In this document: one piece after another, positions 25,881-48,734 of the stretch
Numbering within the stretch: position 1 is the stretch's first letter
How the letters are laid out: the number at the start of each line of letters is the position of its first letter
Source: an uncultured Chitinophaga sp.
Lineage (GTDB): Bacteria; Bacteroidota; Bacteroidia; 2-12-FULL-35-15
Assembly: GCA_964549315.1 (NCBI GenBank)
Contig: CAZJUY010000003.1
Location: 45,729-109,728, forward strand
Length of the DNA: 64,000 bases
Direction of reading: 5' to 3'
The notes under the pieces: model-generated
Seen by the model: only the letters and a program-made list of their open reading frames with translations
Told to the model about the DNA's origin: nothing
Database searches by the model: none
Made by a program: the position numbers and the translations under genes

Positions 25881-27263
25881 TTATTTTTTCAATACCTTTT
25901 CTACTTTATAAAATGTTTCCGAGTTTAGTTGTATAAAATAAATACCGCTTTCATATTGAGAAATATCAATTTTTTTGGAATTAGAGCCTGACTTTGAACC
26001 TATTAATTGCTCAAAATATAATTGCTTCCCTAAAACATTTGTAATTTCTAATGTAGTATTTACTCCTGAATATATTTCCCAATTAATAATCAAATAATCA
26101 TTTGCTGGGTTTGGGTAAATTAAAACATTATCTTGAATAGAGCTTTCTTGAATGTTTGTAATAGTTATAGATATTGTATTTGAAACATAAGGACAAGCAT
26201 CTGCATAAGTAACTTCTACATAATAGTTTCCGGACAAAGTGAAATTATATGTTTGACTATTTGCTCCAGCAATCGGATTTCCATTTAAATACCATTGATA
26301 GGTTGTTGCCAGAGTAGATTGTAGCACAGAACCAGTTTGACTAATAACAGGATTTGAATTATTAATGCAAGATTGTAAATAGTTTATTCTTGGAGAAGCG
26401 ACTAAAGAATCATTAAATATATTTCTTGAATTACAAATATCTTTTAAGTAGTACTCAAGCCACAATTTTAGAAAATCAGAAACCACATCTTTTTGCTGAG
26501 CACCAGTTATCGCAGGTGCTGGTGTACATGTTGACTGACCAAAAGAACAATTTGCATTAAAATTTGCAAACTCGCAATGTGCGCCACCTTTTACGCTAAT
26601 AAATGTTTTGCAATTAGAGATTAACGAATCATACATTGGTGTTTGATGTTGATTTGCAGGTGCAACACAATCATTTTGTCCAGAAAAAACTAAACAAGGA
26701 ACGGTAATATTTTGAGCCGCTGTTATTGCAGATGGTGTTGTATTTGCTGCCGCCATTGAAACCATAGTAGTGATATTTGTGTTATTTTTCGCTGCTAAAA
26801 AGGAACTTCCACCACCCATAGAATGACCCATAATTGCGGACTTAAAATTTATGTGATTATAAAATAATGATGACGAATTAGTTGCACTTTCATTTTGCAT
26901 TTTAGTAACTAAAAAGGCTAAATCTTTACCAAACTCTAAATGATTGGGTGAAAAACTACCTTCCGTTCTTGGAAATGCTAAAATGTAACCTTGAGGAACT
27001 AAATCATTCCAAATATTTTGATACGCATCCCATGTCATCACAAACCCATGACCAAAAACAATTAAAGGAAACTGCCCAGCAGATACTGGAACACTAGTTC
27101 CTGCAGTTGTTGTTGGATAATATATCTCTGTTTGAATACTTCTTCCTCCACGAGCAGGATCAGTATAAGTTATTTGAACGTGACCTATTTGATAGGTTTG
27201 TGCATTTACGTTCGCGAATGTTGCAAACAACCCAAATAATGTTAAAAATAATTTCTTTTTCAT
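25881..27263 (-). CDS. Secreted alpha/beta-hydrolase of the cutinase/PETase-like (dienelactone-hydrolase-fold) type with a T9SS type-A C-terminal sorting domain
   Basis: Signal peptide; blocks aligning with Thermobifida cutinase and Ideonella PETase as recalled: IYYPT, MGHSMGGG (nucleophile Ser), VPCLVFSGQNDCVAPA...MYDSL (Asp), GGAHCEFAN (His); C-terminal IYPNPANDYLII...GIYFIQL sorting domain. Confidence 0.7.
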   Translation of the reverse strand: MKKKLFLTLFGLFATFANVNAQTYQIGHVQITYTDPARGGRSIQTEIYYPTTTAGTSVPVSAGQFPLIVFGHGFVMTWDAYQNIWNDLVPQGYILAFPRTEGSFSPNHLEFGKDLAFLVTKMQNESATNSSSLFYNHINFKSAIMGHSMGGGSSFLAAKNNTNITTMVSMAAANTTPSAITAAQNITVPCLVFSGQNDCVAPANQHQTPMYDSLISNCKTFISVKGGAHCEFANFNANCSFGQSTCTPAPAITGAQQKDVVSDFLKLWLEYYLKDICNSRNIFNDSLVASPRINYLQSCINNSNPVISQTGSVLQSTLATTYQWYLNGNPIAGANSQTYNFTLSGNYYVEVTYADACPYVSNTISITITNIQESSIQDNVLIYPNPANDYLIINWEIYSGVNTTLEITNVLGKQLYFEQLIGSKSGSNSKKIDISQYESGIYFIQLNSETFYKVEKVLKK

Positions 27264-29762: not shown

Positions 29763-30827
29763 TTACTTTTTTCTTGGGCCTTTATTTTGTTGGGGAGGCT
29801 TTGTATTACTTGGTCTTTGTTGGGGTTTAACATTAGGTGAATTTGGTTTACTCTGAGGTTTAACCTTATTTGGTTTCGACTTAGGAGAATTGTCAACTGG
29901 TTTCATAACAGGCTTACTATCTGATTTCGGTTCAGATTTATTATAGTTTGGTTTACCTTCTGTTTTAATATTTGAATTTAAAGGTTTTGCTTCTGCTTTA
30001 GATGGTTTAAATGCAGGATTAGTTGTCATTGGTTTACCTTTATTTGGCGAATCGTACGTTTTAACATAAGATCCTTTAGTTCTATTTTGCATTACCATTG
30101 GAGATGAAGACTTTCTTTGTCCGTAATATGTATGTGTATTAGGGCTTCTATAAATTGGAGTTCTATGATAATGTCCATGATAATGATTATGGTAATGATG
30201 ATGATGCCAATAGTAATTATGCCAATACCAAGGTTTCCATGGATTCCACCAAACAGGATAATAATGCCAATACCAAGGCGATACATACACTACATAAACA
30301 GGCGAATAAACATGTCTAATAATAGGCCAATGTCTAACCGTTACATATACTCTTGTATCTGGCGCACTTGAATAATTATTATTAGTTGTATTATTATTTA
30401 CAATTACTGTTTTTCCATCGTTTGAAGAAACATCGGCTTGATTTGATTTTGGAATTGGTGTTTCACTAACTTGTTTTTGATTTGAATCATTTTCTTTTGG
30501 TTCAACAATATAATCCTTGCCATATAAATCTTCATTCCCGACTATTTGAACCAAATAATTATCGTCTTTGCTTTTTTCAATTTCGATAACAGCTACATCT
30601 TGGTTTTCTTTTTCATTTATAGGAATTTGCAAAACCACAGCATGATTGTCTCCATTTTTATTATCAATAACTTTTATGTAATCCGTTTTACCATCATTAT
30701 TCAAATCCAAGTTGTTTATTTTGGAATCTTCTTGGTTTAATTTTTTCTCAAACTCCTCAAAAGTTGCACATTGCTGAAATAAATCTAGCACAGCATACAA
30801 ATTTAAATTATCGCCTGGCAATCCCAA
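29763..30827 (-). CDS. Low-complexity secreted(?) protein with an acidic EF-hand-like N-domain, a His/Tyr/Trp-rich core (WYWHYYPVWWNPWKPWYWHNYYWHHHHYHNHYHGHYH) and a Lys/Pro-rich basic tail. The track ORF starts at TTG; an upstream ATG at 30914 encodes a signal peptide but is separated from the body by an in-frame TGA at 30876..30878
   Basis: Direct reading of composition; upstream frame reads MKKVVFTLVLLR-TGA-FFIKHSFSQSVEKADSLGLPGD... Confidence 0.55.
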   Translation of the reverse strand: MGLPGDNLNLYAVLDLFQQCATFEEFEKKLNQEDSKINNLDLNNDGKTDYIKVIDNKNGDNHAVVLQIPINEKENQDVAVIEIEKSKDDNYLVQIVGNEDLYGKDYIVEPKENDSNQKQVSETPIPKSNQADVSSNDGKTVIVNNNTTNNNYSSAPDTRVYVTVRHWPIIRHVYSPVYVVYVSPWYWHYYPVWWNPWKPWYWHNYYWHHHHYHNHYHGHYHRTPIYRSPNTHTYYGQRKSSSPMVMQNRTKGSYVKTYDSPNKGKPMTTNPAFKPSKAEAKPLNSNIKTEGKPNYNKSEPKSDSKPVMKPVDNSPKSKPNKVKPQSKPNSPNVKPQQRPSNTKPPQQNKGPRKK

Positions 30828-33866: not shown

Positions 33867-33906
33867 CAAAATGCTGCGAATAATATCGCAGCATTTTTTA
33901 TTTTTT
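33867..33906 (+). terminator. Rho-independent terminator (aaaatgctgcga / tcgcagcatttt, then T-run)
   Basis: Perfect 12-bp stem followed by ttttatttttttt. Confidence 0.7.
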
Positions 33907-33938: not shown

Positions 33939-36900
33939 ATGAAAAAACTACTATTCATCTTTGCGTTTTTAATTTCTTCACTTATTACCACTTCAAATGA
34001 ATTAATTAAAAACCCTTACGAAATTTATTTTGCCAAAGCCTATACATTAAACCCTAATATCCCAAAGGGAATTTTAGAATCTGTCGCGTTTTGCAATACA
34101 CGCTTTGCTCACATTACCCATACATCTACGCAATCCGAAAGTTGTGCGGGAATTCCAAATGCATATGGTGTAATGGGGCTTACATTAAATGGGGAAAATT
34201 ATTTCTCAAATAATTTAATTCTTGTTTCAACACTATCTGGGTATCCTATAAATGAAATAATTAATTCTCCTGAAAAAAACATTTTGGCATATGCAAAAGC
34301 TTATGAAGCTGTCCAGCAAAAACTTAGTATCAAAGATAATTCTATTACCTCTCAAATTTTAGTTTTAAAATATTTGAGTGAGTTGCCAACTAAAACAATT
34401 GGTCAAGAATATGCATTAAATACGCAACTATACGGCTATTTAGATTTTTTAAGCAATGTAGATTACCAACAATTTTACGGTTTCCCAAATTATGAAATAG
34501 ATTTTATAAAAATATTCGGAGAAAATAATTTTTCTATTTTAAGTTCGCAAAGTATAACCGTTACAGATGAAAATGTATTTAACAAAAGTGGGTTAACTTA
34601 TTCTCCATCTCAAAACAAATCTCCACTATCAGCAGATTACCCTCCTGCCCTGTGGAACCCTGCAGCATCCTGCAACTATAGTTCACGAAGTGGGACTGCA
34701 ATTTCTGCTGTAACAATACATACCGTTCAAGGCAGTTATGCAGGTTGTATATCATGGTTTCAAAATTGTTCGGCAGGAGTTTCTGCACATTATGTTTTGC
34801 GCTCCAGCGATGGGCAAGTAACACAAATGGTTTTGGAGGCACAAAAAGCATGGCATGTTGGTTCCGAAAACCCCTATACTATTGGATTAGAACATGAAGG
34901 CTACATCAGTAATCCTGCTTGGTACACAAATGCAATGTACAATGGATCTGCAGCTTTAGTCCGTGATATCTGTAGTAGCGGTTATGGAATTAATCCTTTG
35001 AGAACATACTATGGACCTGGCTGCTCTGGTGGTTATTCAAATTGCTTACTTGGAAATTGTACTAAAATCAAAGGTCATCAAATGTTTGCAAACCAAACTC
35101 ATACTGATCCTGGCCCAAATTGGAATTGGTCGTTATATTATCATTTAATAAATAATGCTCCAACCATTAATACTGTATCTACTGCTAGCGGAAATTTTTA
35201 TGATAGTGGTGGAGCTGCAGGAAACTATACAAATGATGAACGTTTACTTACACTCATTCAACCTGCAGGAGCAACTACAATTACATTAACGTTCACAAGT
35301 TTTAATATTGAAGCTAATTGGGATTACTTATTTATTTATGATGGAGCTACAACTTCAGCTCCTTTGATTGGAACATATACTGGCACAAGCAGCCCTGGTA
35401 CCGTTAGTTCAAGTGGAGGAAGTTTATTAATTGAATTTAGAAGTGATTGTGCAACTGTATCATCTGGCTGGGTAGCAAATTGGACAAGCAATGCAACTCC
35501 ACCTCCAGTTAGTGATAATACTCCTCCAACAACGATTGTATCAACAACAAATGCCTGGGAAACAGCAAATTTTACTGCAAACTATACTGATACTGATAAC
35601 ACAGGAGGGAGTGGTTTAGAAAAAAGTTATTATCAAGTAATTGATTATAATGGAACCGAATGGAGAGCAAATAATAACAATGGTTTTTTTGCAGATAATT
35701 TTGACTATGCTATTCACTCTGATTGGACAAGTGCAACAGGAACTTGGAATATTAATGCAGGAGCATTGTATCAAAGTGATGAAGTATTGGGCAATACGAA
35801 CATTTATGCTCCACTCAATCAAACATTATCCAACCGATACCTATATAATTTTTATGGAAAAATAGATGGTTCAGGAACTACAAGAAGAGCTGGCTTTCAT
35901 TTCTTTTGTGATGATGGAAGTTTAACAAATAGAGGAAACTCTTATTTTGTTTGGTTCCGAGTGGATGACGCTAAATTGCAAATTTATAAAGTTATAAGTG
36001 ATGTATTTGGTTCACCAGTTGTTGACATTCCACTTACAACAGCTGCAGGTCAATGGTATGATTATAAAATTATTTACGACAGAATTACTGGAAAAATTTC
36101 TGTGTATAGAGACAATTCATTTATTACAAGTTGGACTGACTCTTCACCTTATAGTTCTGGAAATGCAATTTCATTTAGAAGTGGAAATGCAAATTTTGCA
36201 ATAAATGAATTGAAAGTTTATCGTTCAAGAAATCCTTTAACTACCAATGTTTCTGTAGGTCCCGCTTCAACGAATGATATACGATTTCAAAACCCTAATC
36301 CAACAACATTTGCAGGAAAAATAAAATCTATTTGTGCTGACTCAGCTGGAAACTTATCAGCAATCTATTATCACAATTTAAATATTGATTGGACACCTCC
36401 AAGTATTGCTGATACAATTAATGATGGATTAGGTTCGGATATTGTTTATACAAACTCAGCAACACAATTATCTGCAAATTGGAGTTCTTCTATTGATACT
36501 AACTCAGCCATAGCAAGATATTGGTATGCAATTGGAACAACTGCTGGCGCAACAGATGTTGTTAGCTGGACCGACAATTGGTTTAACACAAGCGTCACAC
36601 ACACAGGATTAAGTTTAGTAGATGGACAGATTTACTTTTTTAGTGTTAAGGCTGAAAATGGTGCAGGATTGCAATCTGCCATATTTACAAGCAATGGACA
36701 AACTGTGGATTTAACTCCTACTTCTATTGAAGATAATACTTCAGAAAATTTTCAATTCTCTGTTTATCCAAATCCTTTTACAAATTTCACTACATTAAAT
36801 TATCAACTAAAAGAAAATTCAAAAGTTGAAATAACCTTGTCTGATGTTTTAGGAAAACAAATTATCTTATATAATAATTTACAAACTGCAGGAAAACATG

Positions 36901-37004
36901 ATTTGACAATTGATTCTAAAGCATTAGAATTAAGCAAAGGAATATATTTTATACGAATTAATGTAAATGGAGAAATTAAAACAAATAAAATTTTATTAAA
37001 ATAA
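33939..37004 (+). CDS. T9SS-secreted multidomain N-acetylmuramoyl-L-alanine amidase (Amidase_2/PGRP-type) of 1021 aa: unknown N-domain, amidase, CUB-like, LamG/lectin-like, FN3-like, T9SS type-A CTD
   Basis: Amidase_2 blocks (AHYVL..., IGLEHEG, GHQMF..THTDPGPNWNW); CUB-like WDYLFIYDG; C-terminal VYPNPF...GIYFIRI sorting domain. Confidence 0.7.
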   Translation: MKKLLFIFAFLISSLITTSNELIKNPYEIYFAKAYTLNPNIPKGILESVAFCNTRFAHITHTSTQSESCAGIPNAYGVMGLTLNGENYFSNNLILVSTLSGYPINEIINSPEKNILAYAKAYEAVQQKLSIKDNSITSQILVLKYLSELPTKTIGQEYALNTQLYGYLDFLSNVDYQQFYGFPNYEIDFIKIFGENNFSILSSQSITVTDENVFNKSGLTYSPSQNKSPLSADYPPALWNPAASCNYSSRSGTAISAVTIHTVQGSYAGCISWFQNCSAGVSAHYVLRSSDGQVTQMVLEAQKAWHVGSENPYTIGLEHEGYISNPAWYTNAMYNGSAALVRDICSSGYGINPLRTYYGPGCSGGYSNCLLGNCTKIKGHQMFANQTHTDPGPNWNWSLYYHLINNAPTINTVSTASGNFYDSGGAAGNYTNDERLLTLIQPAGATTITLTFTSFNIEANWDYLFIYDGATTSAPLIGTYTGTSSPGTVSSSGGSLLIEFRSDCATVSSGWVANWTSNATPPPVSDNTPPTTIVSTTNAWETANFTANYTDTDNTGGSGLEKSYYQVIDYNGTEWRANNNNGFFADNFDYAIHSDWTSATGTWNINAGALYQSDEVLGNTNIYAPLNQTLSNRYLYNFYGKIDGSGTTRRAGFHFFCDDGSLTNRGNSYFVWFRVDDAKLQIYKVISDVFGSPVVDIPLTTAAGQWYDYKIIYDRITGKISVYRDNSFITSWTDSSPYSSGNAISFRSGNANFAINELKVYRSRNPLTTNVSVGPASTNDIRFQNPNPTTFAGKIKSICADSAGNLSAIYYHNLNIDWTPPSIADTINDGLGSDIVYTNSATQLSANWSSSIDTNSAIARYWYAIGTTAGATDVVSWTDNWFNTSVTHTGLSLVDGQIYFFSVKAENGAGLQSAIFTSNGQTVDLTPTSIEDNTSENFQFSVYPNPFTNFTTLNYQLKENSKVEITLSDVLGKQIILYNNLQTAGKHDLTIDSKALELSKGIYFIRINVNGEIKTNKILLK

Positions 37005-37008
37005 GAAA

Positions 37009-39999
37009 ATGAAAAAAAATATTTTAATTCTATTTTATTTAATCTCGTTTGGTTGTTTTTCACAACTAAACAATTTCAAATCTGTTCATCAAGAAGAAGC
37101 TGAAAAATATTCAACATATAATTTAGAAACAGATTCGGAATGGGACAGCTTGAGAAGTTTTATCTCTGGCACAAACAAATCATTTACAACTAAAAATAAC
37201 AGAGCATGTAATTTACAAAAACGTGTTTATGGTTGGCATCCATACTGGAGCAATGGATTACAAACTAATTATGATTGGAATGGACTAACCGACTTGTGCT
37301 ATTTTTCTTATGAAGTTAATTCAAGCAATGGAAATGCTGTTACAACTCATGGTTGGAGCACAGCAACAGTAGTTACAGATGCTCAAACAAATGGAGTAAA
37401 TGTTACATTATGTGCAACATTATTCAGTGGACATACTACTTTTTTTGGAAGCTCTACAGCTCAACAAACACTTATTACAAATTTGATTAATCTTGTTCAA
37501 TCAAGAAATGCAAAAGGCGTAAATATTGATTTTGAAGGAATGGGAGCATCTCATAAAGTTCCATTCACAAATTTCATGATTAACTTATGTAATCAAATGC
37601 ATACAGCGATTCCAGGTTCTGAAGTTAGCATTGCGTTGTATGCAGTAGATTGGAATAGTGTTTTTGATATGACTGCCCTTAATCCTTATGTGGATTTATT
37701 TATTATAATGGGATATGATTACTACTGGAGTGGAAGCTCTACTGCAGGACCTGGAGACCCATTGTATAATTTTCAAACATCTTATAATTATACTTTAACA
37801 AAATCCATAACCTATTATTTAAAACAAGGTGCATCACAAAATAAATTATTATTAGGATTGCCTTATTACGGGAGAGAATGGAGTACTTCCTCAACTTCTA
37901 TTTATTCCACTACAACTGGAAGCAGCAATACTGTTACATACAGAACTTTTCGTCAGAATGCCAATGGCTATTACAACTCTCGACAATGGGATGGAATTAG
38001 TTTTTCAACCTGGTTTCCTTCTACAAGAGCTGGAACCCCTTGGCAATGTTTTATAGATGATGCTTATGCATTAGGAAAAAGATTCGACATAGTAAATCAA
38101 AGAGGTATTGGTGGAATTGGTATTTGGGCTTTAGGCTACGATGATGGATACAATAATTTTTGGAATTTAATACGAGATAAATTTACTGATTGTGCTATCA
38201 TTCCATGCACTGATACCATATATGATATGGGAGGCCCAGCCAGAAATTATTATGATAATGAAGCTTATGTTTACACAATTGCTCCTACAGGCGCATCTAA
38301 TGTTACATTAAATTTTTCATCTTTTAGTACTGAATTAAATTATGATACTTTGTGGATATACAATGGCAATTCAACAGCTTCCCCATTAATTGGATTTTAT
38401 CATGGTGCCACTTCTCCTGGAATAGTTACTTCAACTGCTGGTGCATTGACAATTCGTTTCAAGTCTGACAACGCCACTAACCAAGCAGGTTGGCAAGCAA
38501 TCTGGAATTGCACAATAGACAATATTGCTCCTACCACAACTATTAGCACCCCTTCGAATTGGCAAACAGGAAATTTTTCGGCATCATTTACTGATATAGA
38601 TAATTTTGGTGGAACAGGGATAGAAAAAAGTTTTTATCAAGTGTTAGAATATACAGGAACAGAATGGAGAGCAAATAATTCTCGCGGTTTTTTTAGCGAT
38701 AATTTTGATTTAATAATTCACCCAGACTGGACAACACAAGTTGGAACTTGGGCTATTAATAGTAGTTACTTGCAGCAATCTGACCAGACAAATGCAAATA
38801 CAAACATGTGGGCACCATTAACACAAAATTTATCAAATAGATACTTATACAACTTTCAAGCTAAAATAGATGGCACAGGAACAAACAGAAGAGCTGGATT
38901 CCATTTTTTTTGTGACGATGCAACACAAACAAATAGAGGCAATTCTTATTTTGTTTGGTTTAGAGTTGACCAAAGTGTTTGCGAATTTTATAAAGTCAAT
39001 AGCAATGTATTTACCTTAATGGGTTCTGTTCCTATGACTGTGAATGCAGCTCAATGGTACGATTACAAAATATTTTATGATAGAATTACGGGGGAAATGG
39101 AAGTTTACCAAAACGATAATTTTGTTGGTGAATGGACAGATCCAACTCCGCTCTCAAATGGAAATGCAATTTCTTTCCGAAGCGGAAACTGTGATTTTAT
39201 GGTAAATGACTTGAAAGTTTATCGTTCAAGAAATGCAACTGCAAACATCACTGTAGGTTCTGCAAGTACAAATGATGTTCGTTATCAAAACCCAAATCCT
39301 ACACAGCCATCATGCAGAATAAAATCTATCACAAAAGATAATGCAAGAAATATTTCTGCTATTGTAAGTCAAGATATAGATATCGATTGGACACCACCAA
39401 GCTCTCCGGTTATTTATGATGGACTTTCAAGTGATATAGATACTTCTTATTCTTTAACTCAACTTTCATCAAATTGGACAATTTGTACCGACACAAATTC
39501 AAATGTTGTAAAATATTGGTACAGCATAGGAAGTTCAGTTGGTGCAACAGATATTCTAAATTGGACAGACAATCTATTAAGTACTTCTATAACTCAATCT
39601 GGACTCTCACTAACACAAAATCAAATTTATTACTTCAATGTGAAATCTGAAGATGGCGCAGGTTTGCAATCCAGCATAGAAAGTTCTGACGGACAATTGG
39701 TATTAATTTCAACTGCAATTCATGAAAGTTTAGATAATATTAATTTAAGCGCTTACCCTAATCCGTTTAATGATAACCTAAACATAATCTACAATTTAAA
39801 AAGTAACGCTACAATTGAAATAAAATTAACGGATGTTATTGGCAAGGAGATTGTGATTCTAAATTCATTAGACCAATCAAAAGGAAAACACTTTTATACA
39901 ATTAATAAACAAAATTTAAATCTTTCTGAAGGAATCTATTTTTTAAAATTCACTTTAAATAATTCTACAGAAACAATTATTAAAATTATTGTTCAATAA
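37009..39999 (+). CDS. T9SS-secreted multidomain glycoside hydrolase family 18 protein (996 aa) whose C-terminal ~550 aa parallels 33939..37004
   Basis: GH18 blocks (YGWHPYW, KGVNIDFEG catalytic region with a variant DxxDxDxE motif, LLGLPYYG, GIWALGYDD); CUB-like region, then the same lectin/FN3/CTD tail. Confidence 0.7.
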   Translation: MKKNILILFYLISFGCFSQLNNFKSVHQEEAEKYSTYNLETDSEWDSLRSFISGTNKSFTTKNNRACNLQKRVYGWHPYWSNGLQTNYDWNGLTDLCYFSYEVNSSNGNAVTTHGWSTATVVTDAQTNGVNVTLCATLFSGHTTFFGSSTAQQTLITNLINLVQSRNAKGVNIDFEGMGASHKVPFTNFMINLCNQMHTAIPGSEVSIALYAVDWNSVFDMTALNPYVDLFIIMGYDYYWSGSSTAGPGDPLYNFQTSYNYTLTKSITYYLKQGASQNKLLLGLPYYGREWSTSSTSIYSTTTGSSNTVTYRTFRQNANGYYNSRQWDGISFSTWFPSTRAGTPWQCFIDDAYALGKRFDIVNQRGIGGIGIWALGYDDGYNNFWNLIRDKFTDCAIIPCTDTIYDMGGPARNYYDNEAYVYTIAPTGASNVTLNFSSFSTELNYDTLWIYNGNSTASPLIGFYHGATSPGIVTSTAGALTIRFKSDNATNQAGWQAIWNCTIDNIAPTTTISTPSNWQTGNFSASFTDIDNFGGTGIEKSFYQVLEYTGTEWRANNSRGFFSDNFDLIIHPDWTTQVGTWAINSSYLQQSDQTNANTNMWAPLTQNLSNRYLYNFQAKIDGTGTNRRAGFHFFCDDATQTNRGNSYFVWFRVDQSVCEFYKVNSNVFTLMGSVPMTVNAAQWYDYKIFYDRITGEMEVYQNDNFVGEWTDPTPLSNGNAISFRSGNCDFMVNDLKVYRSRNATANITVGSASTNDVRYQNPNPTQPSCRIKSITKDNARNISAIVSQDIDIDWTPPSSPVIYDGLSSDIDTSYSLTQLSSNWTICTDTNSNVVKYWYSIGSSVGATDILNWTDNLLSTSITQSGLSLTQNQIYYFNVKSEDGAGLQSSIESSDGQLVLISTAIHESLDNINLSAYPNPFNDNLNIIYNLKSNATIEIKLTDVIGKEIVILNSLDQSKGKHFYTINKQNLNLSEGIYFLKFTLNNSTETIIKIIVQ

Positions 40000-40470
40000 A
40001 TGACAGAAGAAAAATTCATGAACGAAGCAATTCGACTTTCATTCGAAACAATGAGAAGCGGAAAAGGAGGACCATTTGGCTGTGTAGTTGTAAAAGATGG
40101 AAAAATTATTGCAGAAGGATTTAATCAAGTAACTGCGAATAATGATCCTACAGCACATGCCGAAGTAGTTGCAATTCGAGAAGCGTGCAAAAAGCTAAAT
40201 ACTTTTCAATTAACAGGTTGCGAAATTTATACAAGTTGTGAACCCTGTCCTATGTGCTTAGGAGCAATTTACTGGGCTCGGCCAGATAAATTATTTTATG
40301 CAAATACAAAATCAGATGCGGCTAAAATTGGTTTTGACGATGATTTTATTTATCAAGAAATAAATTTATCTTTAGATAAACGAAAAATACCTACTGCGCA
40401 GATAGGAAGAATGACTGCGTTGAAAGCTTTTGAAGAATGGGAAAACAAAAAAGATAAGATTGAATATTAA
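40000..40470 (+). CDS. CDA-fold nucleoside deaminase (guanine deaminase / TadA-like, 156 aa)
   Basis: HAE...PCPMC zinc-binding motif; ATG abuts the stop of the upstream gene. Confidence 0.8.
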   Translation: MTEEKFMNEAIRLSFETMRSGKGGPFGCVVVKDGKIIAEGFNQVTANNDPTAHAEVVAIREACKKLNTFQLTGCEIYTSCEPCPMCLGAIYWARPDKLFYANTKSDAAKIGFDDDFIYQEINLSLDKRKIPTAQIGRMTALKAFEEWENKKDKIEY

Positions 40471-41337
40471 ATGAAAAAACACCTTTTTATACTTTGCTTC
40501 ATTGTTTCGAATTTTGTTTTTTCACAAGAAGAAATCGATCCATTTCAAAAATACGGACCACCTGACACGCATATTTATACGGATTTAAAAGAAGCAGTAA
40601 AAGAATATAAGCTTGTTTATAAACTAAAGCTTGATCATCAAACATTTGATGTGAAACTATTACCAAAAATTGGAAAACTAACTGAAACACAAGTTTTACA
40701 ATTTACTTCGAATGGATTAACTCAATTACCAACTGAAATTGTGAATTTTAAAAACCTAATTTATTTCAATTGTGTTGGAAATGAAATTACTAGCCTTCCA
40801 AACAATTTTAGCAACTGGCAACAACTTGTTGAATTGCATTTACATGGAACAAAATTAGATTCTATCCCGACAGAAATAGCTTATATAGGTCGGTTAAAAT
40901 TATTGGAAATACAGAACAACAAGGCAGATACATTTTACTTCCCAAATTCTATTGGGTATATGGCTAACCTAAATGAAATAGTACTATTTAATACAACATT
41001 AGACACTTTACCTGATACATTTAGCCAATTCAAAAAACTAAAAAGCTTATCTCTGATAATGTGTAAAATAAATTCAGTACCAAAAGTAATCTGTAAAATG
41101 AACAGCTTAGAGTATCTAAACTTGGATAATAATAATTTAATTGAACTACCAAAAAATATTAATAAACTAAAAAATTTAAAATATTTGTCATTAAGAAACA
41201 ATAAACTATCCTACATTTCAGACTACATCTGTTTTCTTAAAAACCTTGAAGTACTTGATTTAAGAGGAAATAAATTTAAGGAATATGATATTGCAATATT
41301 AAAAGCATTGTTGCCAAAGTGCAGAATATACGTCTAG
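40471..41337 (+). CDS. Secreted leucine-rich-repeat (LRR) protein
   Basis: Signal peptide; ~9 LRR units (LxxLxLxxNxL) such as LEYLNLDNNNLIELPKNINKLKNLKYLSLRNNKL. Confidence 0.75.
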   Translation: MKKHLFILCFIVSNFVFSQEEIDPFQKYGPPDTHIYTDLKEAVKEYKLVYKLKLDHQTFDVKLLPKIGKLTETQVLQFTSNGLTQLPTEIVNFKNLIYFNCVGNEITSLPNNFSNWQQLVELHLHGTKLDSIPTEIAYIGRLKLLEIQNNKADTFYFPNSIGYMANLNEIVLFNTTLDTLPDTFSQFKKLKSLSLIMCKINSVPKVICKMNSLEYLNLDNNNLIELPKNINKLKNLKYLSLRNNKLSYISDYICFLKNLEVLDLRGNKFKEYDIAILKALLPKCRIYV

Positions 41338-42683
41338 ACAATCCTTTTACTAATATAATTGAATCGTAAAAAAAGTAAAATTGCTGCACTTGTTAATCCT
41401 AGCAGCAATCCATACCAAATTCCTTTAACACCAAAATTAAAAACAAATGCAAATACATAACTCATAGGTAATCCAATCACCCAATACGATAACAGTGTTA
41501 TAACTGTTGGAATTTTCACATCTTTTACTCCACGTAAAGCACCTAGAGAAACAACTTGTATTCCATCGCTTATTTGAAAAAAAGCAGCTATAACCAATAA
41601 AGAGGCAGAAATTTTTATCACTTCAAAATCATTTGTAAATAATATTGGCAGTTGATTTCTAAAAACTAAAAACAAAATTGCTGTAATTAACATAAAAACT
41701 ATAACCATAATAAAAGCTGAAAATCCCGCCATCCGAACACCTTCTGAACTTTTTAGTCCCATTTGATTACCAACCTTAACGGATGCAGCTGCTGACAAAC
41801 CACTTGCCATCATGTACGTTACTGCAGCTAAACTCAATGCCACTTGATGAGCTGCTTGTTGTTTATGACCTATCCAACCTATCATCACAACTGCAAATGC
41901 AAATGCTCCTACTTCAAACATCCATTGTAAACCCGAAGGAATACCAATTGCAAGAATTTTTTTTGTAATTTCTTTTGAATAATTTTTCAATGAAAAATCT
42001 TGCCAATAAATTTGATAGCGTTTATTATAATATACATATAAAAACATTGCAATCGCCATCAACATTCGAGCGATAAAGCTTGCCCAACAAGAACCCATCA
42101 AGCCCATTTTAGGAAAACCCCAATGACCAAAAATCATAACATAGTTTAAAACTATATTTAACAAATTTGAAAAAATACTTATCACCATCGCTGTTCTGGT
42201 ATCTGACAGGCCTTCTAAAAATTGTTTTAACCCAGAAAAAAAACAGAGGGGAATCATTCCTAACATCATTACATTCAAAAAAGGAATTGCATTATTCACA
42301 ACTTCTTGTTTTTGATTAAATAAATTTAAAGCGGGTGAAAGAAAAAATAAAAGAACAAATAATAAAATTCCTAATGCAGTATTAATGATTATAGACTGAT
42401 TTAAAAGCTGTGCATTTTCTTTTTGATTATTTGAACCATCGGCAGCAGCAACTAAAGGTGTAACACCATAAGAAACACCTAAACCGAAAACTAATAATAA
42501 AGTGTACAAACTATTTGAAAGTGCCACTGCTGCTTGTTCAACCGTTCCAATTTGCCCTACCATTGCAGTATCTACAACCCCCACAAGTATGTGTCCAAAT
42601 TGACTCATAACGATAGGAAAAGCCAACAAAAAAGTCGATTTATAATTTTTTATATATTCAGGTGATAACATAAAAGCCTGCAA
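41334..42683 (-). CDS. MATE-family multidrug efflux transporter
   Basis: 449 aa; 12 TM helices; typical MATE N-terminus. Confidence 0.85.
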   Translation of the reverse strand: MQAFMLSPEYIKNYKSTFLLAFPIVMSQFGHILVGVVDTAMVGQIGTVEQAAVALSNSLYTLLLVFGLGVSYGVTPLVAAADGSNNQKENAQLLNQSIIINTALGILLFVLLFFLSPALNLFNQKQEVVNNAIPFLNVMMLGMIPLCFFSGLKQFLEGLSDTRTAMVISIFSNLLNIVLNYVMIFGHWGFPKMGLMGSCWASFIARMLMAIAMFLYVYYNKRYQIYWQDFSLKNYSKEITKKILAIGIPSGLQWMFEVGAFAFAVVMIGWIGHKQQAAHQVALSLAAVTYMMASGLSAAASVKVGNQMGLKSSEGVRMAGFSAFIMVIVFMLITAILFLVFRNQLPILFTNDFEVIKISASLLVIAAFFQISDGIQVVSLGALRGVKDVKIPTVITLLSYWVIGLPMSYVFAFVFNFGVKGIWYGLLLGLTSAAILLFLRFNYISKRIV

Positions 42684-42798: not shown

Positions 42799-45180
42799 AT
42801 GAAAAAAATCAGTTTACTAATTTTCGTTTTATTAATTACCACAACTTTATTTGCTCAAAAAGTTCTTTTACCACAACAATCTTATGATGAGATGAAAAAG
42901 AAAGGGACATTAAAAAATAACGTGGAATATGTGATTATCAATAAAAATGAAAACTTAGCTGCGCCTTCTGTTCCCGTAACGAAAGAACATTTAGATAAAA
43001 TGAATTATAAAAGTGGTGGTGGTGCTACCAGTTGCAGTTGTATCGTTCCATTAGATGGCACTTTTAATGTTGCTGAATTTCAAGGCTACCCTGCTCCAGA
43101 TTATAGAAATGATGATGGATCTACTGCAGCCAAAACAATACCTTTCAACTTTTGTTTATATGGTACTAATTATACGCAACTGTATATAAATAACAATGGC
43201 AATATCTCTTTTGGAGCTCCGTATACTACATTTTCTTCAAATCCATTTCCAGACCCAGCTTATATTATGGTTGCTCCTTTTTGGGGAGATGTAGATACAA
43301 GACCTGCAGCAAGTGGTTTAGTATATTATAAAATTACCCCAACTTATATGATAGTAAAATGGCAAGATGTGGGTTATTACGCTAACCATACTGACAAGAA
43401 AAATACTTTTCAATTAATTATAACAGATGGAACTGATCCTATTTTACCTGGTGGGAACAATATTGCTTTTTGTTATGGTGATATGCAATGGACTACTGGA
43501 GATGCATCTTCTGGAGTAGGAGGATTTGGTGGGATTCCATCTACTGTTGGTGTAAATAAAGGAGATGGAGTTAACTATATCCAAATTGGGCGATTTGATC
43601 AAGCAGGTGCTGCTTATGATGGAGGCTATGGTGCAAATGATGGTGTTAGTTGGTTGGACAATCAGACATTTTATTTTAATTCTTGCAGTGGAACAAATAT
43701 AGCTCCTATAGCAAATGGATTAAATAATTGTGATACAATTCATATTTGTAGTAGTGGTGACACATTAATATTAAATGGGTTATTCTTAGCACCCGAAATT
43801 GGTCAAAATACAACTATTACAATTAATTTAAATAGTACTCCAGGAGCAAGTATTGTGAGTAATACGCCTGGGAACAGTGCAAGCGCCCAAGTGATGATAA
43901 TAGCAAGTGCTGCCAATGCAGGGAATAATGTAATAACATTTACTGCTACGGATGATGGAACTCCTGCTGCTACAACAATTGTGAATGTAAATGTGTATGT
44001 TGATACTACAGGCCTAGCTGGCTTCAACCCTGTTTTAAGTGGCAATTTAGAATTTTGTCAAGGTGGTAGCACTACTTTAACTGTTGCTCCAACAACATAT
44101 GATAGCTATATCTGGAATACAGGATCAACGAATACATCTATTAATGTAAATACAACTGGACAATATTGGGTAACATCAACTTTAAATGGTTGTTCTAAAA
44201 CTAACATTGTTGATGTAACTGTTAATCCTTTACCAACACCAGCTATTACTGGACCTACATTTACTTGTGGCTCGAATCCAACAACACTCACAATAGATTC
44301 ACTATCGTTATATACAGCATATACTTGGTCAAATGCTGCAACAACTAGTTCAATTACAGTATTGAATGGAACATATTCTGTTACCGTAACTGACACAAAC
44401 GGATGTGTTGGAACATCTCCATCTGTAACTGTTACCAATGCGAATCCACAGGTAAATATAACAGGTAATCAATTATTTTGCCCCGGAGATAGTATTCCTT
44501 TAAATGCAGTTCCTACTTTACCTTCTGGTGCTAATTACAGTTGGAATACGGGAGCAAACACTCAAGTTGAGTATATTACATCAGCTGGAACATATTATGT
44601 AAATGTTACTTATGTGAATGGTTGTTTCTGTGGCGATACTGTAACTGTTTCGCAATATGGTTCACCTAATGCAAATTACACTTCTAATCCATTAGGTTCA
44701 TCTCCTCCAAACACACCTGTTAATTTCACGGATTTGTCAAATGTTTCTCCTGGAACCATAACAAATTGGGTTTGGAATTTTGGTGATAGTGTAGGCGTAT
44801 TTAATTTCACCCAAAATCCAATTCATACTTATTCTCAAGATGGAACTTATATTGTTACACTTGCTGTACAAAGCAGTAATGGATGTTGGGATACAATTCA
44901 ATATTCTTATACAGTAGTTTCTGAAGTGTTTGTACCAAATGTATTTACTCCTAATAATGATGGAAGTAATGACTTATTGGTGTTTAGAAATTTAGAATAT
45001 CATCCAAATAGTTCATTAACTATTTTTAATCGTTGGGGAAATAAAATCTATGAAAGTTCAGATTATAAAAACAACTGGAATGGTGATAATCAAAAAGACG
45101 GAGTGTATTACTTTATTTTAAAATTAAGTGACGTTGAAAAACCTATTACTGGTTATGTTCAACTGATTCGAGGAAAATAA
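42799..45180 (+). CDS. Large surface protein with an N-terminal NIDO-like domain, Ig/PKD-like repeats and a T9SS type-B ('gliding motility-associated') C-terminal domain
   Basis: NIDO-like block APFWGDVDTRPAASGLVYY; PKD-like WNFGD...HTYSQDGTY; C-terminus VFVPNVFTPNNDGSNDLLVF...GVYYF. Confidence 0.7.
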   Translation: MKKISLLIFVLLITTTLFAQKVLLPQQSYDEMKKKGTLKNNVEYVIINKNENLAAPSVPVTKEHLDKMNYKSGGGATSCSCIVPLDGTFNVAEFQGYPAPDYRNDDGSTAAKTIPFNFCLYGTNYTQLYINNNGNISFGAPYTTFSSNPFPDPAYIMVAPFWGDVDTRPAASGLVYYKITPTYMIVKWQDVGYYANHTDKKNTFQLIITDGTDPILPGGNNIAFCYGDMQWTTGDASSGVGGFGGIPSTVGVNKGDGVNYIQIGRFDQAGAAYDGGYGANDGVSWLDNQTFYFNSCSGTNIAPIANGLNNCDTIHICSSGDTLILNGLFLAPEIGQNTTITINLNSTPGASIVSNTPGNSASAQVMIIASAANAGNNVITFTATDDGTPAATTIVNVNVYVDTTGLAGFNPVLSGNLEFCQGGSTTLTVAPTTYDSYIWNTGSTNTSINVNTTGQYWVTSTLNGCSKTNIVDVTVNPLPTPAITGPTFTCGSNPTTLTIDSLSLYTAYTWSNAATTSSITVLNGTYSVTVTDTNGCVGTSPSVTVTNANPQVNITGNQLFCPGDSIPLNAVPTLPSGANYSWNTGANTQVEYITSAGTYYVNVTYVNGCFCGDTVTVSQYGSPNANYTSNPLGSSPPNTPVNFTDLSNVSPGTITNWVWNFGDSVGVFNFTQNPIHTYSQDGTYIVTLAVQSSNGCWDTIQYSYTVVSEVFVPNVFTPNNDGSNDLLVFRNLEYHPNSSLTIFNRWGNKIYESSDYKNNWNGDNQKDGVYYFILKLSDVEKPITGYVQLIRGK

Positions 45181-45988: not shown

Positions 45989-47467
45989 TTAATGCTCAAT
46001 AATAATTTTTTGAGCACCCATAATTCTTCCAGAATAATCTATTAAACTTACTATATACATCCCTTTAATAAAAGAACTAACATCAATAAGTTGTGTCCCC
46101 TTAAAAATATCATTGAGTTCTTTTTCAAAAATATTTTCACCTAAAATATTTGAAATTCTTAAAAAATATTTTTTTTCAGTAAAGTTGTTCTTGAAATCAA
46201 CATAAATCATATGGTTAGCAGGATTGGGATAAATATTAAAAAGAAAATTATTGGAAGAGTAGCTATTACTGATTGAAAGTGGAGCATCTATATCTGACGA
46301 AGTAGAGAAGCCTAAAGTATCTGTTTTTATAATATATGCATCTTCAAGAAGATTTGAAGTGTTATTGGTTTGTCCACAGATAAAAAATCCATTATCCTCA
46401 GTAACTTCAATTGAATAGGCATTTTCTTTTTCGTAACTACCAAATGTTGTTGCATTAACAAAAGACCAGTCTTGTCCTAAAACGACTATTAAAACCTCTC
46501 CATTGGCATTTGCAAATCCAAAACTTGTAGTTTTCCCAGTCATTGCAATTTTACCATCCAATCGTTCTGTAATTGATTCAAAACTATCAAAACTCGAACC
46601 TCCAAAGGTGTAGTTAACCCCTGTAATTCCTGAAGTTGAAATTTGATAAACCACACCATCCGAATCCCCGGCTCCTAAACTTTTAGTTTCTCCACATACA
46701 ATATAATAACCCGAACTGCTTTCTAATAAGTCATTTCCAAAATCAGCTTGCACACCACCGAATCTATTTGTCCAAAGCGTATCGCCATTATAATCAATTT
46801 TAACGGTATAAAAATCCCCCAAAGTATCGCCAAGACTTTTTGAAAAACCTGTTACTAAATAAGCATTATCCAAAGTTTCAATAACAGATTTAGCAACATC
46901 TTGTTTTGCTCCACCAAAGGTTTTAGTCCAAGTTGTATCTCCAAGATTATTTGTTTTAACAAGATAATAATCTTCATCTCCATTACCAAAGCTATAGGTA
47001 CTTCCACAAATTAAATATCCTCCATCACTAGTTTGAATAACACTATTTCCAAAATCCCAATCATCGCCACCATAAATTTTAGACCATTGCTCTGTTAAGT
47101 TTGAATCCAATTTAATTAAATAAACATCATATCCACCAACACTAAAACTATTTGTAAACCCAGTAATAATGTACCCATTATCAGCAGTTCTTTTTATACA
47201 ATTTCCTCTATCAACATTTATTCCTCCGTACATCCCATAAATTCCAGGGTTTCCAACCGAATCAACCTTTACAACTAAAACATCTGAATTTCCATTTCCA
47301 TAACTACTAGATGAACCACAAACAATGTAGCCTTTATTTGCTATCTGAAAACCAGACATTGCATAGTCATAGCCTTGAGCTCCAATTTTTTTTCGAAATT
47401 TAATTTGTCCAAAAGCAGAAAAAAAACAAACTAAAAAGACAAACAATATAAAATTATGTTTATTCAT
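45989..47467 (-). CDS. T9SS type-A CTD cargo protein with repeated Gly/Asp-rich beta-propeller-like units
   Basis: Repeats of the Y..G.T.SFG.G..D..L.K.D..G...W type; C-terminal IYPNPANHMIYVDF...GMYIVSL; start chosen at the internal MNKHNF to avoid overlap. Confidence 0.6.
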   Translation of the reverse strand: MNKHNFILFVFLVCFFSAFGQIKFRKKIGAQGYDYAMSGFQIANKGYIVCGSSSSYGNGNSDVLVVKVDSVGNPGIYGMYGGINVDRGNCIKRTADNGYIITGFTNSFSVGGYDVYLIKLDSNLTEQWSKIYGGDDWDFGNSVIQTSDGGYLICGSTYSFGNGDEDYYLVKTNNLGDTTWTKTFGGAKQDVAKSVIETLDNAYLVTGFSKSLGDTLGDFYTVKIDYNGDTLWTNRFGGVQADFGNDLLESSSGYYIVCGETKSLGAGDSDGVVYQISTSGITGVNYTFGGSSFDSFESITERLDGKIAMTGKTTSFGFANANGEVLIVVLGQDWSFVNATTFGSYEKENAYSIEVTEDNGFFICGQTNNTSNLLEDAYIIKTDTLGFSTSSDIDAPLSISNSYSSNNFLFNIYPNPANHMIYVDFKNNFTEKKYFLRISNILGENIFEKELNDIFKGTQLIDVSSFIKGMYIVSLIDYSGRIMGAQKIIIEH

Positions 47468-47468
47468 A

Positions 47469-48734
47469 TTATCTAAAATTTTTAACCAATGATACATAAG
47501 CGCCCATTCCTCCGGCTTTATTGGGTGCTATAAGACCTTCTAAATTATTGCTTCCTAAATAAAACATATATCCTTTTCCTATGTTGCCGTATAAACCCAA
47601 CCCATAATTAAAATTTCCATAACCACCCCAAGCAAATGTTGTAGAAATATTTATATTTTTATTTATCCAGCAATCTGCTTTAGCGTATAATAATAAATTA
47701 TAATTACCATTGTAAACATATCTTGCTCCTTCTGCTAAACCAAATCTTTTGTTTAATTGAATTCGGTAATCTATTGTTAAAATTGTAGGCAAAGTATAAG
47801 TAACAGATTGTTTTTTAAATGGTGCTATTTTTTTTGTTATTGAATCCTGAGATGTTGCATTAAATGTTGAATCTTGTAAATCATAAATGTTATTTATTTG
47901 AAATCCTTCAAAATGAAATGTAGAATCTTGATTTAAATAAAGAGAATTTTTATTAAACCGTATCAAACCAATATCAGAGACCGAAACAGATAGTTTAGCA
48001 TCTCCAATTTTAGTTTTAAATGGTGCTTCAAAAAAAATGTCGATACTCGCTCCTGCTCCATTAAATGCGCTAATTCCTTTTTTAGCAGTATCACTTTGTG
48101 CAATTTGCATCTCAGTTTCAAAATCAATGTATTGCCCATCTTCACTAGTAAATAAGTTTGCTTTTTTTGCATAAATAGATGCATACTGTTCTCCTTTTAA
48201 AAAAGATACAGATACTCCAAATCGAGTTGCACTATCTAAACGAGAAGAAAAAAAACCAAATTGCACCTGCTGATACCTAACAAAATTCATATTAAAATCA
48301 CTCAAATTGGCAGTTTTTCCGGCAAATTGAGAATTACCATAAAAAGCCAACTTATAAAAGTCTTTTGAAAAGCGTGTGTCAAAATGCTGTCTATCTCTCA
48401 AAGAAAAAAAGAAGCTAATATTTTTCTTATGCATAAAAGAGTCGGGAGCAAATGCAGCGTAAATACCATAATTCACATCAGCTCCTACTCTGTTTTTCTG
48501 TTTTACCCTATCTAAAACAACATTTTTTAGTTCGTTGTCTACGTAGCCACCGTTATAAAATTTGTTAAAGAAATCTACTGTTAAACAATTTGAATTTATT
48601 CCAAAATCGCCAGCAATACCCACTCTGTATTTTGCAGAATCTGGAAATTCATCAGAAAAAATAATAGACATTTGAGAGTTTGCAATTGTACTTATAAACA
48701 AAAACAGAGAAAGTATATATCCTACCTTTTTCAC
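47469..48734 (-). CDS. Hypothetical outer-membrane (beta-barrel-like) protein
   Basis: Signal peptide; alternating amphipathic strands; C-terminal ...YVSLVKNFR. Confidence 0.5.
   Translation of the reverse strand: MKKVGYILSLFLFISTIANSQMSIIFSDEFPDSAKYRVGIAGDFGINSNCLTVDFFNKFYNGGYVDNELKNVVLDRVKQKNRVGADVNYGIYAAFAPDSFMHKKNISFFFSLRDRQHFDTRFSKDFYKLAFYGNSQFAGKTANLSDFNMNFVRYQQVQFGFFSSRLDSATRFGVSVSFLKGEQYASIYAKKANLFTSEDGQYIDFETEMQIAQSDTAKKGISAFNGAGASIDIFFEAPFKTKIGDAKLSVSVSDIGLIRFNKNSLYLNQDSTFHFEGFQINNIYDLQDSTFNATSQDSITKKIAPFKKQSVTYTLPTILTIDYRIQLNKRFGLAEGARYVYNGNYNLLLYAKADCWINKNINISTTFAWGGYGNFNYGLGLYGNIGKGYMFYLGSNNLEGLIAPNKAGGMGAYVSLVKNFR

Follow-up and report, generated by a model that had tools for sequence, protein, structure and literature searches.

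Two predicted type IX-exported cell-wall hydrolases on a shared lectin tail, with a leucine-rich-repeat partner, in an uncultured Chitinophaga sp.

What would a bacterium gain from placing two different hydrolases, encoded by neighbouring genes, on one and the same C-terminal tail? The question is raised by a locus in a 64,000-nt stretch of DNA from an uncultured Chitinophaga sp. (GCA_964549315.1, contig CAZJUY010000003.1, positions 45,729-109,728 of the forward strand), which is referred to at its full length as the window and supplies the coordinates used here. Four genes follow one another at this locus (Table 1). Gene 1, with an amidase head, and gene 2, with a glycoside hydrolase family 18 (GH18) head, both carry sorting domains for secretion by the type IX system (T9SS), and they are followed by a deaminase gene and a gene for a leucine-rich-repeat (LRR) protein. 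An earlier note on this DNA had read the locus as a secreted bacteriolytic enzyme pair with accessory partners. Our analysis supports the peptidoglycan-directed pair and the LRR partner of that proposal and removes the deaminase from it. With moderate confidence, we read the locus as a co-transcribed module of two T9SS-exported peptidoglycan hydrolases and a Sec-exported LRR partner, within a large and undescribed family of Bacteroidota proteins that swap their heads.

The two large proteins are paralogs in which different catalytic heads sit on one T9SS-targeted tail, as had been proposed and as Pfam and NCBIfam matches and an alignment of the tails confirm. Pairwise alignment gave 54% identity and 73% positives over 617 residues; the common C-terminal architecture therefore stood, and its length had been underestimated at ~550 residues. 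CUB domains and T9SS type-A C-terminal sorting domains, both of which the earlier note had placed in each protein, score above the respective Pfam and NCBIfam cut-offs (for TIGR04183, 45.1 bits in gene 1 and 41.4 bits in gene 2 against a cut-off of 23), and the sorting domains are conserved in the orthologs of both genes. The signal peptides were read from the sequence. The stretch between the CUB and FN3 domains has no Pfam match. Its AlphaFold model (17 homologs), with a predicted local distance difference test (pLDDT) score above 90 in the core, has the beta-sandwich fold of the concanavalin-A-like lectin/glucanase superfamily (CBM66, LamG, DUF1080). The former label of 'LamG/lectin-like' was right at the level of the superfamily, within which CBM66 is the best structural match. 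Low-confidence beta strands flanking the gene 1 core may form an Ig-like domain in this model. Conservation of the tail is strongest in the lectin core, over which genes 1 and 2 share 64% identity. The proposed FN3-like domain is matched weakly by Pfam in gene 1, and a homolog of gene 1 (P0085) carries a precomputed PF00041 match.

In order to see what else this tail carries, a profile of the lectin module was searched against 1.84 billion proteins, which yielded a family of at least 712 cluster representatives, 301 of them at E <= 1e-30. The heads of the best 150 representatives were then classified locally and with Pfam. Amidase_2 heads were found in 74, of which 45 also carry the N-terminal domain with a lytic-transglycosylase (SLT) fold that is described below for gene 1, and GH18 heads in 19. 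The other heads were GHL10 (5), to which the C. difficile lytic transglycosylase Cwp19 belongs, Peptidase_C39_2-like cysteine peptidase (5, and 3 more recognised by eye), GH25 muramidase (4), SpoIID (3), NlpC/P60-like (3; Pfam 0.01, with the canonical DCSGFV...H motif), Amidase_3 (2) and Peptidase_M23 (1; Pfam 3e-17), and the remainder consisted of a few unassigned heads and ~16 N-terminal truncations. Nearly every recognisable head among these 150 belongs to a known peptidoglycan-cleaving family, and GH18 is the one whose substrate stands in doubt. Because of this near-uniformity, the tail looks like a shared targeting module, and the census points to about ten kinds of cell-wall hydrolase heads carried by it across Bacteroidota. 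Many members have a doubled lectin module or added PKD, Golvesin_C or GBD_T9SS_assoc domains. Two unassigned heads, in P0285 (residues 1-322) and P0317 (residues 1-430), may be new wall-active catalytic domains; one is weakly GH75 (chitosanase)-like (E 9e-4) and the other is perhaps a beta-propeller.

The history of the tail was followed with a tree and an identity matrix of 87 tails, in which tails from the same genome tend to be mutual closest relatives. The amidase and GH18 tails of one genome are 86% identical in locus L027 (next best tail 67-76%), 78% in L067 (59%) and 60% in L048 (51%); in the window's clade the figure is 56-60%, against a mean of 49% to the GH18 tails of other clades. 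Because same-genome tails are closer to each other than to other tails, the tandem genes have repeatedly traded or homogenised their tails, in different lineages. This repeated re-matching suggests selection for both enzymes to recognise one target. Recent gene conversion between the two tails of the window was considered and rejected (61% nucleotide identity, ~50% at third positions, longest identical run 24 nt), and by these figures the exchange in the window is an old one.

Gene 1 has more than 100 full-length homologs (55-100% identity), all from metagenome-assembled genomes (MAGs) of Bacteroidota or from metagenomes. Its head had been assigned to Amidase_2, the N-acetylmuramic acid (MurNAc)-L-Ala amidases, and the Pfam match lies well above the curated threshold. 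In a HMMER alignment with AmpD (1j3g), the zinc ligands H380 and D390 correspond to H154 and D164, and the catalytic E320 corresponds to E116; H261 was assigned as a zinc ligand by motif. These four residues are invariant in 108 of 108 homologs, as are E318 and H388. With its catalytic set intact, the head looks active. It resembles zinc amidases of the AmpD, AmiD, PGRP and T7-lysozyme type in its above-threshold Pfam domain and in the aligned, invariant zinc ligands and catalytic Glu. It differs from AmpD-type enzymes in that the protein is multidomain and predicted to be extracellular, in that the position of AmpD Lys162 is occupied by the invariant His388, and in its fusion to an SLT-fold domain and a lectin tail.

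The search with gene 2 found 178 related genomic loci, and its closest relatives are all metagenome-assembled Bacteroidota genomes. Synteny was surveyed in 80 of these loci, retrieved through the GH18 protein, to which all counts out of 80 refer. An Amidase_2 paralog lies directly upstream of the GH18 gene in ~20 of the 80. In 11 others, which form another clade (clade B; GH18 50-58% identical), the upstream gene encodes an Amidase_3 protein of ~445 aa, and in yet another lineage (L090) an Amidase_3 gene precedes a short-form gene consisting of GH18, CUB and the C-terminal sorting domain (CTD). The presence of amidases of two unrelated folds beside the same GH18 argues for a functional link, which would likely consist in the amidase stripping stem peptides and the GH18 cutting the resulting glycan. 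A peptidoglycan role of the pair is strengthened by the many murein-hydrolase heads found on the tail, by this Amidase_3 substitution and by the lytic-transglycosylase-fold domain of gene 1. Six loci (L004, L011, L095, L096, L098 and L105) have an amidase paralog with a shortened or rearranged tail (for example 822 aa in L004) that matches the lectin region only in fragments. Public annotations of the family are generic ('N-acetylmuramoyl-L-alanine amidase', 'AmpD', 'spore germination protein YaaH'), and the last of these is the label given to gene 2 orthologs by Joint Genome Institute (JGI) pipelines.

The four open reading frames lie on the plus strand as previously described, and their junctions are as tight as had been claimed. 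Genes 1 and 2 are separated by four base pairs (taa-gaaa-atg), and both the deaminase gene and the LRR gene begin with an atg directly after the taa of the gene before. The stop codon of the LRR gene overlaps a convergent MATE transporter gene (41334-42683), and the hairpin that follows the upstream DUF3078 gene is the likely 5' boundary of the transcription unit. These 4-bp and 0-bp junctions, together with the upstream hairpin and the convergent downstream gene, make the four genes a compact unit with clear boundaries, and they are likely co-transcribed. A scan for sigma-70 promoters found fewer sites than in shuffled sequences, the sigma-70 consensus not being applicable to Bacteroidota promoters.

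The LRR protein begins with a signal peptide (Gln at +1), after which come about nine 23-residue repeats (Pfam LRR_8 and LRR_14). It has no T9SS sorting domain and no lipobox, and is presumably periplasmic. In 24-26 of the 80 loci the GH18 gene is followed by a gene for an LRR protein of 287-293 aa, and many of these junctions measure -4 to +4 bp. A reverse test was started from LRR homologs on metagenome contigs and gave 17 loci, 16 of them informative. A tail-bearing hydrolase gene lies directly upstream of the LRR gene in 14 of the 16 (GH18 in nine, a head off the contig in four and an amidase-type gene in one); of the other two, one has a MORN-repeat gene between the hydrolase and LRR genes and one has no hydrolase at all. 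In L105 the LRR gene comes directly after an amidase gene with a shortened or rearranged tail. The proposal that the LRR protein is a partner of the hydrolases is upheld by this conserved, start/stop-coupled and reciprocal synteny. The MORN-repeat gene (1072 aa; L106, 1730-4948) parallels the insertion of the deaminase gene in the window, and the hydrolase-LRR junction seems to tolerate insertions.

A periplasmic protein that binds wall-degrading cargo in transit would most simply act as an inhibitor, in the manner of an immunity protein, or as a holdase. There is precedent for immunity proteins of the LRR kind (Imm-LRR; Zhang et al. 2012, PMC3482391), and, as for genes of the Imm-LRR type, the LRR gene lies immediately downstream of the putative effector and is conserved with it. 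The arrangement resembles Imm-LRR and Imm-Ank toxin-immunity pairs (PMC3482391) and the periplasmic wall-hydrolase inhibitors Tsi and Tai belonging to type VI secretion systems (T6SS) in having a gene for a small secreted repeat protein directly downstream with coupled start and stop codons. It differs from them in its predicted export by T9SS and in that the pairing of LRR protein and hydrolase is putative.

Several of our results weigh against the reading of the module given above. Of its alternatives, the one that survives best gives the LRR protein a helping role, as a periplasmic chaperone, a T9SS-targeting adaptor or an extracellular binding subunit that aids the hydrolases, in place of inhibition or immunity. 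We think it rather unlikely, while taking it seriously. The synteny fits any tight physical partnership, and no conserved concave binding face was seen on the LRR protein, whose conservation falls mostly on structural Leu and Asn positions. In addition, neither LRR nor amidase genes neighbour two members of the family with other heads, P0278 (GH25) and P0345 (GHL10); murein-hydrolase heads without an LRR neighbour would be odd if self-protection were generally needed. Set against this, an LRR protein without a sorting domain or lipobox would need another export route for any extracellular role. Between clades the LRR proteins are 33-44% identical, despite the abutting or overlapping junctions, and thus diverge faster than the enzyme beside them (50-58%), as is common for inhibitor and immunity proteins. 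The Imm-LRR precedent also speaks for inhibition or immunity.

The second alternative concerns the substrate of gene 2. The GH18 head scores above the Pfam threshold over a length fit for a TIM barrel, in agreement with its original assignment, and the catalytic block with its 'DFE' ending had been read correctly (A168-KGVNIDFE-176). N172, I173, D174 and E176 are invariant in 22 orthologs (40-89% identity), and the head looks active, with the catalytic Asp-x-Glu intact. The chitinase signature DxxDxDxE is incomplete in it (K169-G-V-N172-I-D174-F-E176); among the orthologs the first Asp is replaced by Lys or His, the second by an invariant Asn and the Trp before the Glu by Phe, which is suggestive only. 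The earlier note had taken the 'DFE' block as the mark of a peptidoglycan-active GH18 subfamily. A single-sequence search of the PDB seemed to agree, its best solved structures being 4wiw and the spore protein YdhD (3cz8), both with xIDFE where the true chitinase 8hw6 has IDWE. When the family profile was used, 4wiw scored 4.6e-32, chitinase 8hw6 1.5e-31, YdhD 3.5e-30, SleL 6e-21 and YaaH 1e-16, with many chitinases at ~1e-26. The profile failed to separate spore-cortex enzymes from true chitinases, the claim of a peptidoglycan-specific subfamily found no support, and the 'DFE' argument was dropped as decisive. Because homology alone cannot say, the case for peptidoglycan rests on genomic context.

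On this second alternative, the GH18 is an ordinary secreted chitinase, chitodextrinase or endo-beta-N-acetylglucosaminidase used in foraging, the tail is a generic module for glycan binding and surface display, and the adjacency of the two genes stems from duplication. We regard it as unlikely. The profile scores just given for chitinases match or exceed those of the spore-cortex enzymes, and the chitinase-type motifs MGYDYYW, PYYGR and GIWALGYDD are kept, being invariant or nearly so in the 22 orthologs. The lectin module finds its best structural match in CBM66, a carbohydrate-binding module for fructan. In L088, moreover, a short GH18-CUB-CTD gene without any amidase neighbour adjoins other glycan-active T9SS cargo (GH16 and an N-glycanase_C-containing protein). 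On the other side, the same tail is otherwise found almost only on murein-hydrolase families, and amidases of two unrelated folds accompany GH18 in lineages and subfamilies that are distinct from each other. Of the signature, the first and the second Asp are lacking (K169, N172), and the Glu is preceded by Phe in place of Trp, as it is in 4wiw and YdhD. The neighbourhood of the hydrolase genes has no SusC/D, GH20 or Nag genes, and the 64-kb window no chitin-utilisation genes.

The spore-cortex GH18s (YdhD and YaaH of B. subtilis, SleL of B. cereus) and 4wiw remain among the best solved-structure matches to gene 2, with which they share the xIDFE block and the loss of the second Asp. Gene 2 differs from them in lacking LysM domains (no Pfam match, its N-terminus consisting of the signal peptide and a SIHQEE segment), in belonging to a non-spore-former, in its predicted T9SS export and in a profile similarity to them that is no better than that to chitinases. 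The SIHQEE segment, (k)SIHQEExExY at 37078-37113 (residues ~24-35), precedes the GH18 barrel and is kept in nearly all orthologs; possible roles for it are those of a pro-segment or a docking helix.

The evidence for the N-terminal domain of gene 1 is also mixed. Of the architecture formerly given for gene 1, the Pfam-confirmed domains stood, and the first 250 residues had been passed over; these hold a further cell-wall-related domain. Residues 20-215 have 63% mean column identity over 24 homologs, and their AlphaFold model (mean pLDDT 76, core above 90) has a lysozyme-like fold. Foldseek ranked lytic transglycosylases first, without significance (E 0.3). These residues have no Pfam match, with PF01464 (SLT) absent at E <= 0.1, and the family profile of the domain retrieved no lytic transglycosylase from the PDB. 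Using hhalign, the SLT domains of five characterised E. coli K-12 enzymes were aligned to the same profile, and the result was weak (E 0.035) but sensible, with GLMQ opposite GVMGL and DPETNI opposite SPEKNI. In this weak alignment the catalytic Glu-Ser of RQESAW (Slt70 E505-S506) stands opposite N53-T54 (N53 codon at 34095). The column of the canonical catalytic Glu holds Asn in 67, Gln in 38 and Thr in 3 of 108 homologs, and never Glu or Asp; E47 (codon at 34077), six residues before N53, is invariant in the same set. Compared with the family-1 lytic transglycosylases (Slt70, MltC, MltD, MltE, MltF; GH23), the gene 1 family has Asn/Gln-Thr/Ser in place of the catalytic Glu-Ser in all 108 homologs, and in this it resembles engineered, inactive E-to-Q mutants of these enzymes. 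We read the domain as a lytic-transglycosylase fold whose canonical acid residue for catalysis has been lost and whose most likely use is to bind glycan strands. Alternatively, it may have a non-canonical catalytic arrangement that uses E47.

The third alternative was also the second reading of the earlier note, namely that the enzymes remodel the producer's own wall, for daughter-cell separation or to make room for envelope machines, with the LRR protein as a regulator in the periplasm. This we consider improbable. It would accord with a periplasmic LRR protein without a sorting domain and with the chromosomal setting of the locus among housekeeping genes. The Amidase_3 neighbour of clade B, which like cell-division amidases has a signal peptide and no T9SS domain, points the same way; this neighbour could be a housekeeping amidase of the periplasm, its adjacency being inherited synteny within one clade. 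The remodelling proposal is disfavoured by the type-A sorting domains, above curated cut-offs and conserved in orthologs, that direct cargo over the outer membrane and away from the own sacculus. Large tails with lectin, CUB and FN3 domains are what one expects of enzymes at the surface or outside the cell. Across genomes the family is also patchy, with GH18 alone in many loci and varying head types, unlike essential housekeeping autolysins.

The deaminase had been described as a cytoplasmic nucleoside deaminase of the cytidine deaminase (CDA) fold. The fold and the lack of a signal peptide were confirmed; the substrate class was not, since the protein is of the GuaD type known from B. subtilis, which deaminates the base guanine. 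It matches PDB entries 1tiy and 1wkq (E 2e-56) at full length, over residues 1-156 and including the C-terminal segment, and has the zinc motifs HAE and CEPCPMC (PCxxC). Apart from the window itself, L001, its closest relative, was the sole one of the 80 genomic and 17 metagenomic loci with a deaminase gene at this position. With its housekeeping-type product and lineage-restricted position, the gene does not qualify as the accessory partner it had been taken for; by all indications it is a passenger, a lineage-specific insertion into the operon. A toxin-like or secreted deaminase was rejected because GuaD is matched over the full length and no signal peptide is present, and weak Pfam matches to MafB19, SNAD4 and Bd3614 are explained by the CDA fold. 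That all four genes form one functional system is scarcely credible: co-transcription is likely in this genome, given the stop and start codons that abut at either end of the deaminase gene, but the product of that gene is orthologous over its full length to B. subtilis guanine deaminase and has no signal peptide, the gene is missing from the position in 79 of 80 genomic and all 17 metagenomic loci, and an unrelated MORN-repeat gene fills the equivalent slot in L106.

The module of two hydrolases and an LRR partner could work as follows. Judging by domain content, both large proteins would cross the inner membrane by Sec, and the T9SS would then recognise their type-A sorting domains and release them or attach them to the cell surface. 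The shared tail, with its CUB domain, CBM66-like lectin and FN3-like spacer, would bring both enzymes to the same polymer, most likely foreign wall material in view of the heads that co-occur on it. There the Amidase_2 domain, with a catalytic set that is intact by sequence, would remove stem peptides from MurNAc, and the SLT-fold domain would probably hold the glycan strand without cutting it. The GH18 would cut the glycan backbone after N-acetylglucosamine, probably best on strands denuded by the amidase, as its recurrent pairing with two amidase folds suggests. The LRR protein would stay in the periplasm and most likely bind the GH18, and perhaps the amidase, in transit, as an inhibitor or holdase that protects the producer's sacculus; this is the most speculative step. 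The purpose of the pair may be predation and digestion of prey, competition and killing of neighbours, or scavenging of wall debris.

A wider hypothesis can be put forward only tentatively. Uncultured freshwater and soil Bacteroidota might export, via T9SS and on one lectin tail, a polymorphic arsenal of murein hydrolases (amidases, a GH18 glucosaminidase, muramidases, lytic transglycosylases and endopeptidases) that lyses other bacteria, with dedicated periplasmic LRR immunity proteins protecting the producer and tail exchange keeping co-acting enzymes aimed at the same target. If this were true, T9SS would be an antibacterial or predatory delivery route comparable to T6SS effector-immunity systems.

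Modular wall hydrolases that share a targeting domain are classic in Gram-positive bacteria and phages. The choline-binding murein hydrolases of pneumococcus (LytA amidase, LytB glucosaminidase, LytC lysozyme and CbpD), modular autolysins and phage endolysins combine different heads with one wall-targeting module, and their modules are shuffled. The family described here is alike in carrying various peptidoglycan-cleaving heads on one common module. In contrast to the pneumococcal enzymes, this module is composed of CUB, concanavalin-A-like lectin and FN3 domains and ends in a T9SS sorting domain, the heads are N-terminal, and an LRR partner gene is conserved. With producers that are Gram-negative Bacteroidota, the enzymes must cross the outer membrane and cannot reach the producer's own wall from outside.

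An equivalent exported toolkit for Bacteroidota or T9SS appears to be undescribed so far in the literature that was searched. Full-text searches found no description of the lectin-tail hydrolase family. The 2023 review of T9SS effectors describes no antibacterial effector-immunity pair and does not mention amidases, lysozymes, muramidases or antibacterial activity, and in a 2025 review of contact-dependent predation the sole context in which T9SS is cited is the grappling hook of Aureispira. If our reading is confirmed, peptidoglycan turnover, through bacterial killing or recycling of necromass, would join the roles of T9SS in abundant uncultured Bacteroidota of lakes, soil and wastewater. The CBM66-like lectin would be a new cell-wall-targeting module, the GH18 a testable case of action on peptidoglycan outside sporulation, and the LRR protein a candidate for a bacterial glycoside hydrolase inhibitor of the LRR type. 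The hydrolases are candidate enzybiotics as well.

Table 1. Coordinates, in the window, of the four genes, their domains and the upstream hairpin
Feature	Position	Strand	Composition or evidence
Terminator-like hairpin	33868..33897	+	12-bp stem and T-run, after upstream DUF3078 gene; scan and sequence reading
Gene 1, 1021 aa	33939..37004	+	Signal peptide, SLT-fold domain, Amidase_2, CUB, lectin module, FN3-like, T9SS type-A CTD
Gene 1, lytic-transglycosylase (lysozyme-like, GH23-type) fold domain, residues 20-215	33996..34583	+	
Gene 1, Amidase_2 domain, residues 253-393	34695..35117	+	Pfam PF01510, E 7e-23, 81.9 bits (cut-off 26)
Gene 1, CUB domain, residues 415-514	35181..35480	+	PF00431, E 5e-13, 49.7 bits (cut-off 21.4)
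Gene 1, shared middle module, residues 516-832	35484..36434	+	Concanavalin-A-like lectin core ~35721-36218
Gene 1, FN3-like domain, residues 838-911	36450..36671	+	Pfam fn3, E 0.097 (weak)
Gene 1, T9SS type-A CTD, Pfam residues 942-1018	36762..37001	+	PF18962, 5e-11; TIGR04183, 7e-12
Gene 2, 996 aa	37009..39999	+	Signal peptide, conserved N-terminal segment, GH18, CUB, lectin module, FN3-like, T9SS type-A CTD
Gene 2, GH18 catalytic domain, residues 79-378	37243..38142	+	Pfam, E 3e-31, 109.7 bits (cut-off 29.6), profile positions 8-317 of 317
Gene 2, GH18 catalytic block KGVNIDFEG	37513-37539	+	D174 codon 37528, E176 codon 37534
Gene 2, CUB domain, residues 407-497	38227..38499	+	PF00431, E 1.5e-14, 54.6 bits (cut-off 21.4)
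Gene 2, shared lectin module	38512..39438	+	Lectin core ~38716-39234
Gene 2, T9SS type-A CTD, Pfam residues 916-995	39754..39996	+	PF18962, 9e-10; TIGR04183, 1e-10
GuaD-type guanine deaminase gene, 156 aa	40000..40470	+	
LRR protein gene, 288 aa	40471..41337	+	

The window, with ~31% G+C, is an ordinary chromosomal region that holds housekeeping genes such as those for ValRS, GatB, IDH and urocanase, along with several other T9SS cargo genes. A PETase-like or dienelactone-hydrolase-type alpha/beta hydrolase with a type-A sorting domain is encoded at 25881-27263 (minus strand). Close to the operon are two further cargo genes, one for a NIDO and PKD protein with a type-B (CHU_C) sorting domain (42799-45180, plus strand) and one for a 501-aa protein whose sole Pfam match is a type-A sorting domain (45989-47497, minus strand). 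These CTD-bearing genes indicate that the genome uses a T9SS.

Three further observations were made. A 354-aa open reading frame at 29763-30827 (minus strand), without a Pfam match, has a His/Tyr/Trp/Pro-rich core, WYWHYYPVWWNPWKPWYWHNYYWHHHHYHNHYHGHYH, followed by a low-complexity half rich in Lys, Pro, Ser and Asn. A GH18-LRR contig (L016, the whole contig of 3838 bp) is binned in a MAG titled 'Synechococcus sp. UW140', which is probably mis-binning; alternatively, the carrier may be co-abundant with picocyanobacteria. In four Brumimicrobium-like MAGs (L057, L058, L066 and L069), a convergent gene for a 1137-aa protein with WD40 and caspase (Peptidase_C14) domains abuts the GH18 gene (~12960-16376 in L057).

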